Source: a virus
Taxonomy: Duplodnaviria > Heunggongvirae > Uroviricota > Caudoviricetes
IMG/VR virus record: IMGVR_UViG_2561511241_000004
Span: 1-40,856 of that record
DNA length: 40,856 nucleotides
Reading direction: 5' to 3' (one strand)
The notes under the pieces are model-generated. The model did not search any database, was not told the origin of the DNA, and saw nothing but the letters and a program-made list of their open reading frames with translations. This document shows, piece after piece, positions 1,990 to 7,540 of this stretch. Each line of letters begins with the position of its first letter. The first letter of the stretch is position 1. The translations under genes and the position numbers were made by a program.

Positions 1990-3675
1990 TTAAAAATCAG
2001 CCTGACTCGGGATCAGTTTTTGCCAGATAGCTGAAACGTATTTTGCCTGGTAACGAGCGTCATCAAGTGCATTATGGCGCTCACCTTCGAATGGAATAGC
2101 CGTTCTGGCATCGAAGTCTATGGCTTTCCCCAGCTCAACGATTGTGCGTACATCGCGATCGTTGTAGTAACGCCACGGGCAGGGGATCCCCTGCCGTTCG
2201 TATGAACGGCGCAAAATCGTGTTGTCGAAGTTGGCTCCATTTCCCCAAACCTGAACAAAAAATTCACCGGAGTTTTCGTCGATAAATTCCCGCAATTGTA
2301 ACAGTGCATCATCTAACGGGATTTCATCGGTCATAATGGCAGATTGCGCTTCGCGTGATTGCTTAAGCCACCATTTAATGGTGTCCCGATCAATGACTCC
2401 GCCAGCAGTTTCCAGATCGATAGTCTTACTAAATTCCGGTCCCATATCTCCGGTTTGCGGATCGAAAAATATTGCACCTATTGAGATGATCGGGGCATCA
2501 GGATTTTTTCCCATGGTTTCAAGGTCGATCATTAGATGGTCACACGTCCTGCTGGTGGATGTGATTTCTTGATGACCGTTCACCTTAATTGGGTGATCTG
2601 CCGTCTCGCCAGTTTCATTATCGCTATCGTGATGCTGATTGCCGCCAGTGTTCTCCTTGTGTGGATGTTCAGCGCCTTCCATTTCCTCCGGATCATCTTC
2701 CTGAACTTCAACCTGATACTCTTCATCGAATGTTTCCTGGTATGTAGCGTCGCCCATCACCGCGCCACAATCAGGGCAGTTGCCGCCGCCGGTCTGACCG
2801 CAGGCGGTGCAGACTTTTTCCACTTCCTGTTGCACTACTGGTTCAGGTAGTTTCGTTTCTGGCTCGTTTTGTTGCGTATTTTGGCTGTTTTGTTCCGCTT
2901 TCTGGTCGTTCTGTTCCGTTTCTTGCTGGTTCTGGTTCACAGAATCGCGGGTTTCAATCCCCTTCACCCATTTCGGATCATTCGGATCGCTAATCCCTGC
3001 AACAAATTCACCACGTGATACTGCAAGCAGTTCATCGGCGTCAGGCTGGCTGATATTGGCTGCCTGCATAATTTTGTTTACTTCGTCAGCGGTAACTTTT
3101 ACCGGCCCTGGTTGTGCGGTCGTGTCAGATGCACCAGTATTTTGTTGTGAACCTGAGTATGTACCGTTTTTGCGGGCGAAATATTCTTCTTTCGTGATTT
3201 CAGTAGCCCCTGCAGCCAGTGCCTTATCCAGACCAGAAAGTTTGTTTGCGCGACCGTATTTTTCGCTATCCTTGTCGGTGAAGAGGAAGTAGAACGGCCC
3301 TTCACGCTCTACAGATGGTTCGACTTCCACTTTGCATTCGGTTTTTTCGTTGTCCGGAATTGCCGTTTCCACTGCATCAGTTTCTGGTACTGGCGACGAG
3401 AGAGTATCAGTTGCGCTCTGATTTCTTCCTTCATCTTCAAACACGCCCTTTGTAGTCAGGTATTCAGTAATGTATTTGTTCAGTGCCACAGGGTCTTTGT
3501 GAATGTCGATCGGACGTTCACGGACAAGGCCAAAAATAGTCTGGCGGTCGTAGCGAAGGGCATCAGGCTGTTTGCGCATTGATGCCGAGATACGCTTCCA
3601 GTCTTCGCGGTCGTTGTCGATAACTTCTTTTTTTGCCCAGCGATGGATGCTGCCGTCAATGTTTCCGGCATCCAC
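1990..3675 (-). CDS. exonuclease, C-terminal portion with DnaQ-like DEDDh 3'-5' exonuclease domain; out of frame with the upstream portion
   Basis: C-terminal region carries Exo-like motifs (LMIDLETMG, WGNGANFD, HNALDDA); frame opens only about 30 nt upstream of its GTG, and the preceding ORF runs into junk sequence here. Confidence 0.6.
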   Translation of the reverse strand: MDAGNIDGSIHRWAKKEVIDNDREDWKRISASMRKQPDALRYDRQTIFGLVRERPIDIHKDPVALNKYITEYLTTKGVFEDEGRNQSATDTLSSPVPETDAVETAIPDNEKTECKVEVEPSVEREGPFYFLFTDKDSEKYGRANKLSGLDKALAAGATEITKEEYFARKNGTYSGSQQNTGASDTTAQPGPVKVTADEVNKIMQAANISQPDADELLAVSRGEFVAGISDPNDPKWVKGIETRDSVNQNQQETEQNDQKAEQNSQNTQQNEPETKLPEPVVQQEVEKVCTACGQTGGGNCPDCGAVMGDATYQETFDEEYQVEVQEDDPEEMEGAEHPHKENTGGNQHHDSDNETGETADHPIKVNGHQEITSTSRTCDHLMIDLETMGKNPDAPIISIGAIFFDPQTGDMGPEFSKTIDLETAGGVIDRDTIKWWLKQSREAQSAIMTDEIPLDDALLQLREFIDENSGEFFVQVWGNGANFDNTILRRSYERQGIPCPWRYYNDRDVRTIVELGKAIDFDARTAIPFEGERHNALDDARYQAKYVSAIWQKLIPSQADF

Positions 3676-4552: not shown

Positions 4553-4744
4553 TTAAAGACCTGCCGGGATTTCGATATTATCCTGGTGAATAACTTTATC
4601 GACCGGGTAACAGTTACCGGGAATTTTCTGTTCGGTTGCTGCAGTCATACACTCCTGCATTGTCCTGTGAACACTGACTGCAATATCAACTGGCTCTCCG
4701 GAAACAAGAAAAACTGTCAGAACAAGCACAAATGCTGAATTCAT
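4553..4744 (-). CDS. ydfD: YdfD-like small membrane (lysis) protein, 63 aa
   Basis: 63 aa with N-terminal hydrophobic segment; start overlaps the dicB stop (ATGA); position matches Qin ydfD downstream of dicB. Confidence 0.6.
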   Translation of the reverse strand: MNSAFVLVLTVFLVSGEPVDIAVSVHRTMQECMTAATEQKIPGNCYPVDKVIHQDNIEIPAGL

Positions 4745-4929
4745 TGTGCACATCCTTTTGGCATCAGACGTAAACGAGCCAGCATTGAAACAATGCATAT
4801 TTTATTTAATAGCTCCCGTTCTTGTTTTCTCTTGTTAATGGCATCTTCAGTAAATACAGGGTTACTGATAGTGACACCAATTTCAAAACAACCTTCAGAC
4901 GTATTAACGTTTGGTAATAACGTTTTCAT
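4741..4929 (-). CDS. dicB: cell division inhibitor DicB (62 aa)
   Basis: Translation MKTLLPNVNTSEGCFEIGVTISNPVFTEDAINKRKQERELLNKICIVSMLARLRLMPKGCAQ matches my recollection of DicB; GAGGA RBS. Confidence 0.8.
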   Translation of the reverse strand: MKTLLPNVNTSEGCFEIGVTISNPVFTEDAINKRKQERELLNKICIVSMLARLRLMPKGCAQ

Positions 4930-5104
4930 TATCGCGTCCTCAACAATGAATTTTGTGATGCAGTGCCTGGTGCCTCCAGGTGACGTTAACCAGTTAACAA
5001 TTAACGCCGGATACAGAGAATCCACCCATAACACTGTTTTTGGTTTTAACTGTTCCGCGTGCGCTTAGCCGCATTCACCGCATCACAAAATTCACTTTAA
5101 AAAA

Positions 5105-5158
5105 GGGCGGCAGAGCAGTCACGGAGTAAAAACTGATACCGCCAAACGTCACCAGAAA
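5105..5158 (-). ncRNA. dicF: DicF small RNA (ftsZ-targeting, Hfq-dependent in K-12)
   Basis: Minus-strand sequence UUUCUGGUGACGUUUGGCGGUAUCAGUUUUUACUCCGUGACUGCUCUGCCGCCC followed by a U-run; matches recollected DicF; sits just upstream of dicB as in Qin. Confidence 0.75.
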
Positions 5159-5491
5159 ATTGATAACAGAGGGCGTTGCAGCGGGGTTGTCACTTAAGCG
5201 TATGGTCAACCTGACAACCCGGTGTCCTCAACGGGGAAGGAATAACCCCGCCATACTTACCGCCGCGCCATTTCGCGGGTTGCCACAACCGGAAGCGCAC
5301 GGTCGACGAAAATTTAACGACAGGCTATCTATGAACCAGCTACCTCGCCGTGCGCTTTCGCGTTATGGTCTGACTTTTCAGGGAAATATCCTTTCAGTAA
5401 ACTGTCAGTGCCGGATGTTCACCCGTGTCCGGCGCACGCACTCCACCTCACCCGTGGAGAACTCCTTAATTACCAACCCTCAGGAGGGTGA

Positions 5492-5725
5492 ATGTTAAAA
5501 TCAACTCTTATTGCTAAATGCCTTTATCAAAATCGCATGGTAAGCAGCATTTCAATAGGCGAGTCTGCAGTTAAAAGTATTTTCGAAGAGTACTTCCCCG
5601 GGCATGATTTTAATAAATGGAATACCAAATTACCGCCAGCAGTTTCAACGCGTATTCTGAAAGCAACTGAAAGAGCAAGTACAATTCGCGTTAACTATTT
5701 CATTAAAGATTTGTGGGATCTTTGA
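5492..5725 (+). CDS. hypothetical protein (77 aa), convergent with the early-left operon
   Basis: Strong AGGAGG SD 4 nt before the ATG; AT-rich; overlaps the 3' end of the 135-aa minus-strand gene by 23 nt. Confidence 0.3.
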   Translation: MLKSTLIAKCLYQNRMVSSISIGESAVKSIFEEYFPGHDFNKWNTKLPPAVSTRILKATERASTIRVNYFIKDLWDL

Positions 5726-6110
5726 TATCCACAGAGCCTAAAGTATGTGCATATGGATGTGCTATTGTGCGCCCTCGCAGATTTGCATCATTTTCTAAAT
5801 TCACTGAACGAAACAGGGCATCAACAAGGCTCTGTACAATGCAAAGGCAATCGAAGACTGTCGCTGTTTCTGTTTTGATTGATGAAAGAACATGGCCATT
5901 CACGCAAACAGAAATTACCCGTTCATTAACATCGCTTTCCTGCTTTTGATTATCAGAACCATATAGCCCAGAAAAAGCATTGCGCACATTACGAACCATA
6001 TTATCGATGGTTTCTTTTTTGGTGTATGCCGGGTCAATTTTCACCAGACTATCACCGAGAGTCGTTGCAGCAATTGTCTGGATTTCTTTTGGTAAATCTT
6101 TAAATTCCAT
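5703..6110 (-). CDS. hypothetical protein (135 aa) in an AT-rich island between ydfC and the dicF precursor
   Basis: Good ORF with a GAGG RBS, immediately downstream of ydfC; no family recognised. Confidence 0.55.
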   Translation of the reverse strand: MEFKDLPKEIQTIAATTLGDSLVKIDPAYTKKETIDNMVRNVRNAFSGLYGSDNQKQESDVNERVISVCVNGHVLSSIKTETATVFDCLCIVQSLVDALFRSVNLENDANLRGRTIAHPYAHTLGSVDIKDPTNL

Positions 6111-6132
6111 TATTAGCCTCGTTGGTTAGCTA

Positions 6133-6351
6133 TTAACGTGGGTATGTAATCATTCTGGCAATGCTTAATGCCGCTGCTTTTTCCAGATTGGTGATATCCT
6201 GCTCCAGAGAGAACAGATTTTCAGCCTGCTTAGCCCTGGCTTCATTAGCCCATTTCAGATCCTGCGCTGCATTAATTTTCTGGCGCATCCACTCATAAAG
6301 TTCATCATCGGTATAGTCTGGCGCGATGATGACAGGTTCTCGTTTCTGCAT
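6133..6351 (-). CDS. ydfC: YdfC-like protein (72 aa)
   Basis: 72 aa from the ATG at 6351 with an AAGGAG RBS; length and position match Qin ydfC upstream of dicF. Confidence 0.6.
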   Translation of the reverse strand: MQKREPVIIAPDYTDDELYEWMRQKINAAQDLKWANEARAKQAENLFSLEQDITNLEKAAALSIARMITYPR

Positions 6352-6443
6352 GTCAGCTCCTTGTGGTTCGCATTGCCTGCTTTTAACCACGTCAGGCGAG
6401 GTGGTATCCTCTGAGGGGTCTGTTACTCGAGAGGAAATTGGTT

Positions 6444-6644
6444 ATGAATACAATCAAGTTTTCTTGCCCAGAATGTGGTGGCGAAGTCTTTGACACATCC
6501 TTTAAGCCGCAGGGCTCTGACAGTTTCGCGGGAGCCATCTGCAAAAATTGTGGTCACCTTGTAACTGAAGATGAGTCCTCGCAGTTCGATGACGAAATCG
6601 TTGACAATATCTTCGGTGCACTCACCAGAGACTTTCTGAAATAA
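6444..6644 (+). CDS. small zinc-ribbon protein (CPECGG ... CKNCGH), 66 aa
   Basis: Two CxxC motifs 24 aa apart; GAGG RBS 9 nt upstream; entirely antisense to an alternative 118-aa minus-strand ORF (6423..6779). Confidence 0.4.
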   Translation: MNTIKFSCPECGGEVFDTSFKPQGSDSFAGAICKNCGHLVTEDESSQFDDEIVDNIFGALTRDFLK

Positions 6645-6968
6645 AGACGCATACCGCTTAGTTACCGCTCTGATAACTCTTACCTGTCCGGCAATGGCGC
6701 TGATGTCAATATAAAGCGCCATTGCTGCTTCTTTGCCGATCCCGTGATGCCTTCCATTCTGATGTTTGACTTCGCCCACTGAGAAATCCTCTGTTTCCCC
6801 TTAACGCCGGGGTAGCGGAACAAAAACCTGCTGCATAGTTATTAAAGTTGGACCCTGCCGTCATGTTCTTACGCCTCAGGCTGGCTACTTAACCCCTGAC
6901 CACTGCCTGGTAACTCGAAGTATTGCCCTGCATTCTGTGGGGCGGGGTGGGTTGGTATGAAAAGAAGG

Positions 6969-7007
6969 ATACCCATAGGTATTTAAAAAGTAAATACCCA
7001 TGGGTAA
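6969..7007. promoter_or_regulatory. OL-like operator pair (ATACC-N4-GGTAT and ATACC-N4-GGTAA) with probable leftward early promoter
   Basis: Two 14-bp palindromes centred about 25 bp apart, sharing half-sites with the three OR sites. Confidence 0.5.
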
Positions 7008-7048: not shown

Positions 7049-7468
7049 CTATGATGCGTTTTGTGCTTTCTTTTTACGGATTTCTTCGTAGATCATATTG
7101 TAATACTGTTTTTTCTCTTCAAGAGTTTTTAATAAGTTATCCGCTTCACTTTCTGGCAGTTCGTCTAAGAGATCTAAAAAAATACGTTGTCGTGGCGTTA
7201 GAACCCTTGTTTCATAACTGGAGGCTGTGTTCGTTGATGATGAAACGATACCATCCATCCATCCCCGGGGTAACCCAAAGGACTCTTCGATAATCTCCAC
7301 CATATCATCAGCGATCCGTTTTTTTCCCTTTTTCCCCTCTGGGTACAACATTCTTGATACATAAGAAGGCTCGCGCCCGATCTTTCTGGCCACGTTAACC
7401 GCTTTACCATCGCATTTCTCATCACGAATTTTGATGAGTTGCTGTCGTCTAAATTCATATTTGTCCAT
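7049..7468 (-). CDS. prophage repressor (HTH DNA-binding protein, cI-like role)
   Basis: Divergent from the cro-like gene across an operator-rich spacer; start at 7468 (MDKYEF...) has no SD and sits 7 nt after a TATTAT -10, consistent with a leaderless transcript; the ORF track extends to 7522. Confidence 0.65.
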   Translation of the reverse strand: MDKYEFRRQQLIKIRDEKCDGKAVNVARKIGREPSYVSRMLYPEGKKGKKRIADDMVEIIEESFGLPRGWMDGIVSSSTNTASSYETRVLTPRQRIFLDLLDELPESEADNLLKTLEEKKQYYNMIYEEIRKKKAQNAS

Positions 7469-7487
7469 AGGTAAATAATAGATGCGA

Positions 7488-7540
7488 TTACCGCAAGGTA
7501 AACAACCTGCGGGTATTGACATTTGTTTACCTGTGGGTAT
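7488..7540. promoter_or_regulatory. OR-like tripartite operator with rightward promoter (TTGACA -35 at 7516-7521)
   Basis: Three TTACC-N4-GGTA(A/T) sites at 7488-7501, 7504-7517 and 7527-7540 overlapping the -35/-10 of the cro-like gene. Confidence 0.5.

Follow-up and report, generated by a model that had tools for sequence, protein, structure and literature searches.

In pore-forming colicin operons, the immunity gene is convergent to the colicin gene and has its own promoter, and in phage lambda a convergent 3′ overlap, that of cII and oop, is used in antisense control. Prophages also carry self-immunity pairs for exclusion or abortive infection, such as sieB/esc of P22 and BstA with its aba element. 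Here, we describe a locus that resembles each of these in part, namely a low-GC island in the early-left (dicB) operon of a Caudoviricetes genome recovered as IMG/VR record IMGVR_UViG_2561511241_000004 (positions 1 to 40,856; hereinafter the window, by which we mean this entire stretch of 40,856 nucleotides (nt)). The whole window constitutes a lambdoid prophage of the Qin-like type, and its early-left operon is encoded by the minus strand. The island, situated between ydfC and the dicF precursor, carries a gene for a 135-amino-acid (aa) protein on the operon strand and a convergent gene for a 77-aa protein, hereinafter B, on the other. The observations below are best explained if a two-gene cassette in the early-left operon of Qin-like lambdoid prophages is polymorphic and the island represents one of its alleles. 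Its components are the following:

5479–6112: the island or cassette, extra relative to the Qin prophage of Escherichia coli K-12; 634 bp, 39.3% GC.
5703–6110, minus strand: the 135-aa gene, ATG start, with GAGG six nt upstream; WP_000394519-type in RefSeq.
5946–6110, minus strand: the N-domain, aa 1–55 (MEFKDLPKEIQ...GLY), a predicted helical hairpin common to every allele at the slot.
5706–5927, minus strand: the A-domain, aa 62–135, a beta-hairpin plus helices, homologous to stand-alone prophage proteins of 75–86 aa (phrog_23433).
5492–5725, plus strand: B, the 77-aa gene, ATG start, with AGGAGG at 5482–5487, four nt upstream; WP_000920491-type, phrog_10348.
5703–5725: the 23-nt overlap of the 3′ ends of the two genes, with an inverted repeat (AAAGAT/ATCTTT) and no intrinsic terminator.

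The layout recalls that of the pore-forming colicin operons, in that an inducible gene joins a conserved N-terminal part to a C-terminal part that can be exchanged, a small matched gene with expression signals of its own follows immediately downstream in the opposite orientation, and several allelic pairs exist in the population. However, the cassette has no sequence or fold similarity to the colicins; its proteins are much smaller, the partner is predicted to be soluble and not membrane-bound, a lysis gene is lacking, and the cassette resides in a prophage early operon instead of a plasmid. Considered as a colicin/immunity pair, it displays no Pfam toxin domain and no structural match. With sieB/esc and BstA/aba it would share, in or near the early-left region, a prophage factor that blocks lytic growth and an element of the same phage that exempts it, provided that the exclusion role we infer for the cassette holds; in contrast to those systems, to which it has no homology, its antidote would be a separate convergent protein-coding gene. 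Type I toxin–antitoxin systems of the hok/sok kind are likewise transcribed from overlapping opposite strands, and the leader of B is predicted to close its ribosome-binding site (RBS). Nevertheless, B is by prediction a soluble five-helix protein of 77 aa rather than the short hydrophobic membrane toxin of type I systems, and the opposite strand has a conserved protein-coding gene, not just a small RNA. Unlike in type II systems, the genes are convergent rather than co-directional, and neither product shows homology to a toxin or antitoxin family in Pfam, NCBIfam or PADLOC. Convergent transcripts with overlapping 3′ ends in a lambdoid early operon are also a feature of lambda cII/oop, but oop is non-coding, whereas both strands of the cassette encode conserved proteins. 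As with phage morons, such as HK97 gp15, the island is present or absent between conserved flanking genes, deviates in base composition and may be expressed autonomously in the lysogen. Unlike them, it consists of two convergent genes, one of which is joined in frame to a domain specific to the slot, and it comes in multiple alleles that have a structured leader in common. Judged from these features, the cassette may be described as a moron of two convergent genes, multi-allelic and equipped with a structured leader common to the alleles, and as such offers a lead for experiment.

The open reading frames (ORFs), their RBSs and the 23-nt overlap lie where an earlier note, made by a model from the sequence alone, had placed them. 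That note saw an unknown gene with a side ORF; the two genes instead form a conserved module. A convergent A-domain gene is present at 96 of the 98 B-bearing loci. Those 96 paired loci come from E. coli, Serratia, Klebsiella, Dickeya, Proteus, Citrobacter and Photorhabdus; their two genes overlap by 23 nt in 92 cases, by 26 nt in two and by 51 nt in two. The unpaired loci are L085, which is cut at a contig end, and a homolog from Psychrosphaera. Prophages of Serratia, Dickeya and Klebsiella have B converging on a gene for an A-domain protein of 77–79 aa, with the 23-nt overlap kept. In Klebsiella and Serratia, the A gene lies directly behind a PL-like promoter and adjoins the repressor gene, and it would therefore be an immediate-early product.

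Several observations make B more than a chance ORF, because its length is conserved, its non-synonymous divergence is low, its match to a PHROG family spans the full length and its predicted fold is confident. Its homologs across the Enterobacterales, from Klebsiella, Serratia, Dickeya, Yersinia, Xenorhabdus, Morganella, Proteus and Salmonella, are nearly all 77 aa long and 55–72% identical. Between lineages, the proportion of synonymous differences (pS, 0.6–0.86) is saturated, with the non-synonymous proportion (pN) at 0.06–0.30 and dN/dS, where estimable, at 0.06–0.33. The match to phrog_10348, a family without known function, covers 77/77 positions (1.1e-47). The AlphaFold model, built from 30 sequences, is a five-helix domain with a predicted local distance difference test (pLDDT) score of 96.8 and a predicted template modelling (pTM) score of 0.86; B is predicted to be compact and soluble, and its sequence has no long hydrophobic stretch. 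Together these data show that B is a real gene under strong purifying selection, one whose conserved coding capacity means that it is not merely an antisense RNA. The earlier note had named as the outcome that would speak against it a 77-aa ORF without expression or conservation next to a 135-aa gene that is core to the operon in all relatives. The 77-aa ORF is strongly conserved, and the 135-aa gene is no core member, as 645 of the 5426 complete E. coli genomes (about 12%) carry the island and the 1.7 kb stretch around it (window 5000–6700) is matched at least partly in 4606 of them. A more distant B-like gene, 43% identical and retaining the KSTLIAKCL motif, was observed in a metagenome-assembled genome of Psychrosphaera (L022, 4989–5228).

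The 135-aa protein had been noted as having no recognisable family, which holds for Pfam, NCBIfam and PADLOC, but the implied single protein does not: comparisons show a fusion protein in which a linker joins the slot N-domain to the A-domain. It matches phrog_1363 over residues 1–130 (2.4e-46) and the stand-alone A-domain family phrog_23433 over residues 55–128 (1.4e-09), both families of 'unknown function', and its N-terminus matches five PHROGs with differing C-termini. Its AlphaFold model (pLDDT 72) comprises a helical hairpin (8–50), a disordered linker (50–61) and a beta-hairpin-plus-helices domain, and has no convincing match in the PDB. Residues 62–135 are 36–43% identical to the B-partners of Serratia, Dickeya and Klebsiella, with 20 invariant columns. 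A profile search of 1.84 billion representatives placed the A-domain family in 72 clusters at 50% identity, mostly stand-alone proteins of 70–110 aa, none with an annotated domain. One informative fusion is that of Citrobacter (L016/L017, 4001–4606), with a ClpX-type zinc finger (Pfam PF06689, 36 bits against a cut-off of 27) N-terminal to the A-domain; opposite this gene is a B-like gene of 78 aa, diverged in sequence, and the two overlap by 51 nt. The representative search also returned a 193-aa protein (P0149) in which a YdfC-like segment is fused to the A-domain, and in Proteus a YdfC-like gene precedes the A gene (L019, 5480–5707). The P0149 fusion hints that YdfC may work with the cassette proteins.

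Remote-homology searches and structure prediction, which the earlier note had proposed, gave no family of known function and no known fold for either protein. Scans of both proteins, five sister alleles and four other partners against Pfam, NCBIfam and PADLOC yielded no meaningful match, the one exception being the zinc finger of the Citrobacter fusion, and the same was true of the PADLOC 2.0 defence profiles for the two proteins, other alleles and partners. Sequence-profile searches of the PDB found nothing, and the B model matched no PDB fold and, in a structure search of BFVD, only its own family.

The N-domain (residues 1–55) heads proteins of 124, 133, 135, 179, 186, 201 and 208–212 aa whose C-terminal parts are unrelated, and all of these alleles sit directly after ydfC. 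Across the 102 distinct cassettes counted, the C-terminal domain of the main protein co-varies with the convergent partner as follows:

135-aa main protein: convergent partner of 77 aa (B).
201-aa main protein (A-domain plus a 73-aa tail): partner of 63 aa.
208–228-aa main protein: partner of 69 aa.
133–154-aa main protein: partner of 92 aa or 57 aa.
179–186-aa main protein: partner of 80 aa (CxxC type).
124-aa main protein: no partner.

By these comparisons, the slot downstream of ydfC in E. coli prophages holds at least five interchangeable matched pairs. A variable C-terminal domain that co-varies with an adjacent small gene, here in at least five C-domain classes, is the pattern seen in polymorphic toxins. 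From 6351 down to 5727, the DNA of the 201-aa allele shares 98% identity with the window, after which a 395-bp segment replaces window 5493–5726, which is almost exactly the B ORF (5492–5725). A PHROG scan of the sister partners of 63, 69, 80 and 92 aa found that each matches its own family of unknown function over most or all of its length. The co-variation is the main argument for the two products working together. Two other readings were rejected: the 201-aa variant does not read through antisense to B, being a different cassette with its own 63-aa partner, and the convergent 91-aa ORF beside the 124-aa allele is not a partner but the spurious ORF that runs antisense to the dicF precursor.

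The two genes of the cassette also decay unequally. At least 11 distinct cassettes combine an intact main gene with a frameshifted or truncated partner, and the reverse is seen in three. B itself is frameshifted next to an intact A-domain gene in Photorhabdus (L021, 5001–5165) and in two E. coli loci (L101 and L127), and the partner genes of the 133–154-aa allele are often truncated. Decay biased to the partner is the pattern expected if the partner is dispensable or harmful.

All partner genes in E. coli, including those of 63, 92, 69 and 80 aa, are preceded by a leader of about 85 nt that occurs in two haplotypes. In the window, the leader and the sequence upstream of it comprise the following elements, which involve the Shine–Dalgarno (SD) sequence of B:

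5410–5491, plus strand: structured leader of B, with four pairing elements.
5410–5415 (GCCGGA) and 5428–5433 (TCCGGC), plus strand: the S1 hairpin.
5441–5446 (CTCCAC) and 5454–5459 (GTGGAG), plus strand: the second leader hairpin.
5462–5466 (CTCCT) and 5482–5486 (AGGAG), plus strand: anti-SD against SD.
5418–5424 (TTCACCC), plus strand: the S1-loop, complementary to 5486–5492 (GGGTGAA).
5375–5403, plus strand: TTTTCA-17 nt-TAAACT, a candidate promoter of the partner gene that agrees with the consensus at 8 of 12 positions and stops some 6 nt short of S1.

The leader is predicted to occlude the RBS of the partner. Between the haplotypes, the S1-loop and the SD-spacer change jointly (TCACCC/GGGTGA versus TTATCC/GGATAA), giving two compensatory pairs; RNAalifold draws a long-range helix (UCACCC...UCC with GGA-GGGUGA) in which two pairs change from CG to UA. 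In other genera, the leader has a CCAC/GUGG hairpin and an anti-SD/SD hairpin with the arms TCTTGG/CCAAGA, CCTTC/GAAGG, CCTCT/AGAGG or TCTCT/AGAGA. There, an extended -10-like motif, TGGTATCTT, lies upstream of B; in the E. coli leader this motif is degenerate. Every allele type, as well as K-12, keeps the candidate promoter TTTTCA-17-TAAACT; it scores too low for the promoter scan, which found no site with at least 9 of 12 positions upstream of B in the window.

A terminator scan found none inside the island and none between the two genes. Operon transcripts would therefore run antisense through B, and B transcripts into the 135-aa gene. Antisense interference between the genes is plausible because of this lack of a terminator, and their expression should be mutually antagonistic. 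The first candidate stop for a B transcript is a weak terminator-like hairpin at 6156–6173 (plus strand), inside the 3′ end of ydfC; a transcript ending there would be antisense to the whole 135-aa gene.

Leaders of this type also occur outside the cassette. An ECs_2282-family zinc-ribbon gene (6444–6644, plus strand) is counter-oriented in the early-left operon of the window, and its region (6375–6644) bears the leader type that B has in other genera, with an ACCAC/GTGGT hairpin, GGTGGTATCCT and a CCTCT/AGAGG anti-SD pairing. In Citrobacter, an unrelated counter-oriented gene for a 148-aa protein has a near-identical leader (L016, 5510–5599, minus strand; GCCTG...CAGGC, GGTGGTATCTTGG, CCAAGAAGG); this gene lies about 0.9 kb from the B-like gene, which bears its own copy. 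The leader looks like a portable expression cassette for antisense-oriented morons.

Tentatively, and at what we judge somewhat short of an even chance, we posit that the cassette encodes a cognate interacting pair with reciprocal expression. The product of the operon-strand gene would have an exchangeable C-terminal domain (here the A-domain) connected by a flexible linker to a conserved N-terminal one, and the opposite-strand gene would supply a small protein matched to that C-terminal domain (here B). In the repressed prophage, B would be made at a low level from its own promoter, with the leader keeping the RBS base-paired. Upon derepression, through induction or loss of the repressor, operon transcription running antisense through B would shut B down, and the newly made 135-aa protein would bind and neutralise the remaining B. 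Because the asymmetry of decay is seen together with the predicted closure of the RBS, the assignment we favour, with less confidence than the pairing itself, is that B might be the harmful or excluding component and the 135-aa protein the phage's own antidote. A fuller version, which we regard as speculative and rather unlikely, would have the slot be a polymorphic effector/antidote locus: the small proteins would be latent, translationally locked exclusion or abortive-infection effectors in lysogens, the N-domain fusions would be allele-specific antidotes made immediately on induction, each phage would be immune only to its own effector, and B would have a new fold.

The roles could instead be reversed in a colicin-like manner, with the operon-strand protein being a harmful host-takeover effector made on derepression and the convergent gene a constitutive immunity protein that guards lysogens from leaky expression. 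A conserved N-terminus, an exchangeable C-terminus and a matched small 3′ gene constitute the hallmark layout of polymorphic toxin–immunity systems, the convergent and separately promoted immunity genes of the pore-forming colicins point the same way, and the operon also carries the host-toxic dicF, dicB and ydfD. However, a base-paired RBS is unexpected for a constitutively made immunity gene, and loss of the partner with the main gene intact, about four times commoner than the reverse, would be costly if the main gene were a toxin. Toxin or immunity domains were not detected, the partner has no membrane segments, and in other genera the A-domain alone (75–86 aa) would have to be the whole toxin; in our estimate, the reversal is unlikely. 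A further reading holds that the two genes are independent morons with no functional tie, counter-oriented small genes inserting repeatedly behind operon genes along with their portable leader, such that linkage alone explains the co-variation. The occurrence of the leader type before the unrelated ECs_2282 zinc-ribbon gene and the Citrobacter 148-aa gene is consistent with this, as are the Psychrosphaera B-like gene without an A-domain neighbor and the 124-aa allele without a partner. Against it, the pairing and the 23-nt overlap are seen in several genera and at different operon positions, even where identity has dropped to about 35% for A and 55% for B. Moreover, barring L085 at its contig end, the distant Psychrosphaera homolog is the sole B locus without an A-domain partner, and the boundaries of the swap coincide with the ends of the B ORF, while the C-terminus of the main protein changes along with it. 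We hold this reading, too, to be unlikely.

The earlier note's suggestion of antisense interference amounts in essence to another alternative, in which the cassette acts as a brake at the RNA level: convergent transcription from the partner promoter would limit read-through into the toxic dicF–dicB segment, either through collision or because RNase III cuts the duplex, with the proteins being secondary. The absence of a terminator between the genes, the position of the cassette directly upstream of the dicF precursor and the precedent of cII/oop would all fit such a brake. Yet purifying selection and the confident fold show that the coding sequence of B is itself selected, the pair also occurs in prophages without downstream dicF or dicB, and dicF and dicB are retained in K-12 Qin and in thousands of further genomes that lack the cassette; on balance, we consider the brake very unlikely as the main function.

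A number of points weigh against the cognate-pair proposal itself. What speaks for it are linkage, co-variation, the leader, position and decay, with expression, interaction and toxicity being predictions from these. Known families of toxins, antitoxins, immunity or defence proteins gave no match to any cassette protein, and none of the proteins modelled has a structural match. The co-variation could arise from tight physical linkage without interaction, and the pairing is imperfect, as the 124-aa allele is unpaired and the 133–154-aa class pairs with two different partners. The Psychrosphaera B-like gene lies between genes for a chemotaxis receptor and an alpha-glucosidase, with no A-domain neighbor and no prophage context. 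In the case of the leader, the predicted mean SD pairing probability is modest, at 0.68 as compared to 0.50 in control genes; shuffling gives p values of 0.02–0.9 per leader, which combine by Fisher's method to about 0.01 when combined by hand with the nine types treated as independent; and the covariation comes from two haplotypes only. The candidate promoter is weak, and its conservation could reflect a function of the dicF precursor on the minus strand. Finally, the decay counts are small and the loci phylogenetically non-independent.

The surroundings of the cassette bear on its history. Its neighbors in the window are the following:

6133–6351, minus strand: ydfC, the conserved upstream neighbor of the slot (RefSeq annotation).
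5105–5157, minus strand: the DicF small RNA (Rfam RF00039, 69.9 bits, E = 1.5e-14), which follows the slot in the operon.
4741–4929, minus strand: dicB (DicB Pfam match, 9.6e-40).
7049–7522: cI-like repressor gene.

The operon thus has the makeup of a Qin-type dicB operon, with ydfC upstream and DicF RNA and dicB downstream, all on one strand and collinear with K-12. By blastn against K-12, window 4701–5478 corresponds to 2202–2977 of the Qin locus (L001) and window 6113–6351 to 2978–3216; K-12 Qin is collinear up to 5478, lacks the island and resumes at 6113, so the comparison with a Qin-like prophage that the earlier note had advised delimits the extra DNA to exactly 5479–6112. The flanks are contiguous in K-12 and many other genomes. 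The low-GC island described in that note between ydfC and the dicF precursor is borne out, its 39.3% GC (as compared to 50.7% for the window) being the lowest among all 634-nt windows (0.1 percentile). Its reading as an insertion fares less well: K-12 is more likely a deletion derivative of a cassette-bearing ancestor, because it still holds the 5′ half of the leader common to every allele. The breakpoint at 5478/5479 falls inside the loop of the B leader, so that S1, the second hairpin and the anti-SD arm are still there in K-12 Qin, whereas the SD and both genes are gone. The K-12 segment concerned (L001 2905–2990, equivalent to window 5405–5478 joined to 6113) also keeps a decayed RBS of the N-domain gene.

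Three other features were observed in this region. A sub-threshold Rfam match to STnc100 (35.7 bits against a gathering score of 47, E = 2.6e-05) covers the DicF–dicB spacer at 4910–5115 (minus strand). A TTG-start ORF of 112 aa at 5160–5498 (plus strand), antisense to the dicF precursor and ending at the start of B, looks spurious; the ORF that corresponds to it beside the 124-aa allele is the one that had been taken wrongly for a partner. A terminator-like hairpin with a 16-bp stem is found at 6970–7006 (minus strand), just downstream of the cI-like gene.

The E. coli genomes carrying the island include many O157:H7, O145, O111 and O121 Shiga toxin-producing strains, and the island is also present in 12 phage records, namely phage Evi and records annotated with PPompW prophage. 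A scan of genome contigs gave four loci. In RefSeq genomes, both ORFs are annotated by the Prokaryotic Genome Annotation Pipeline as coding sequences for hypothetical proteins. We found no paper citing the RefSeq accessions of the two proteins, and the papers on dicBF show non-conserved genes in the region without study of those genes.

Linkage, the co-variation of alleles and partners and the common leader make a defined two-component module of what was prophage dark matter. The exact pair is present in about 12% of complete E. coli genomes, with sister alleles in more, all of them recorded merely as hypothetical proteins. The textbook dicB operon of K-12 appears to be a deleted version of a richer ancestral arrangement, and the module could represent a new self/non-self or defence system in the very operon that makes DicF and DicB.

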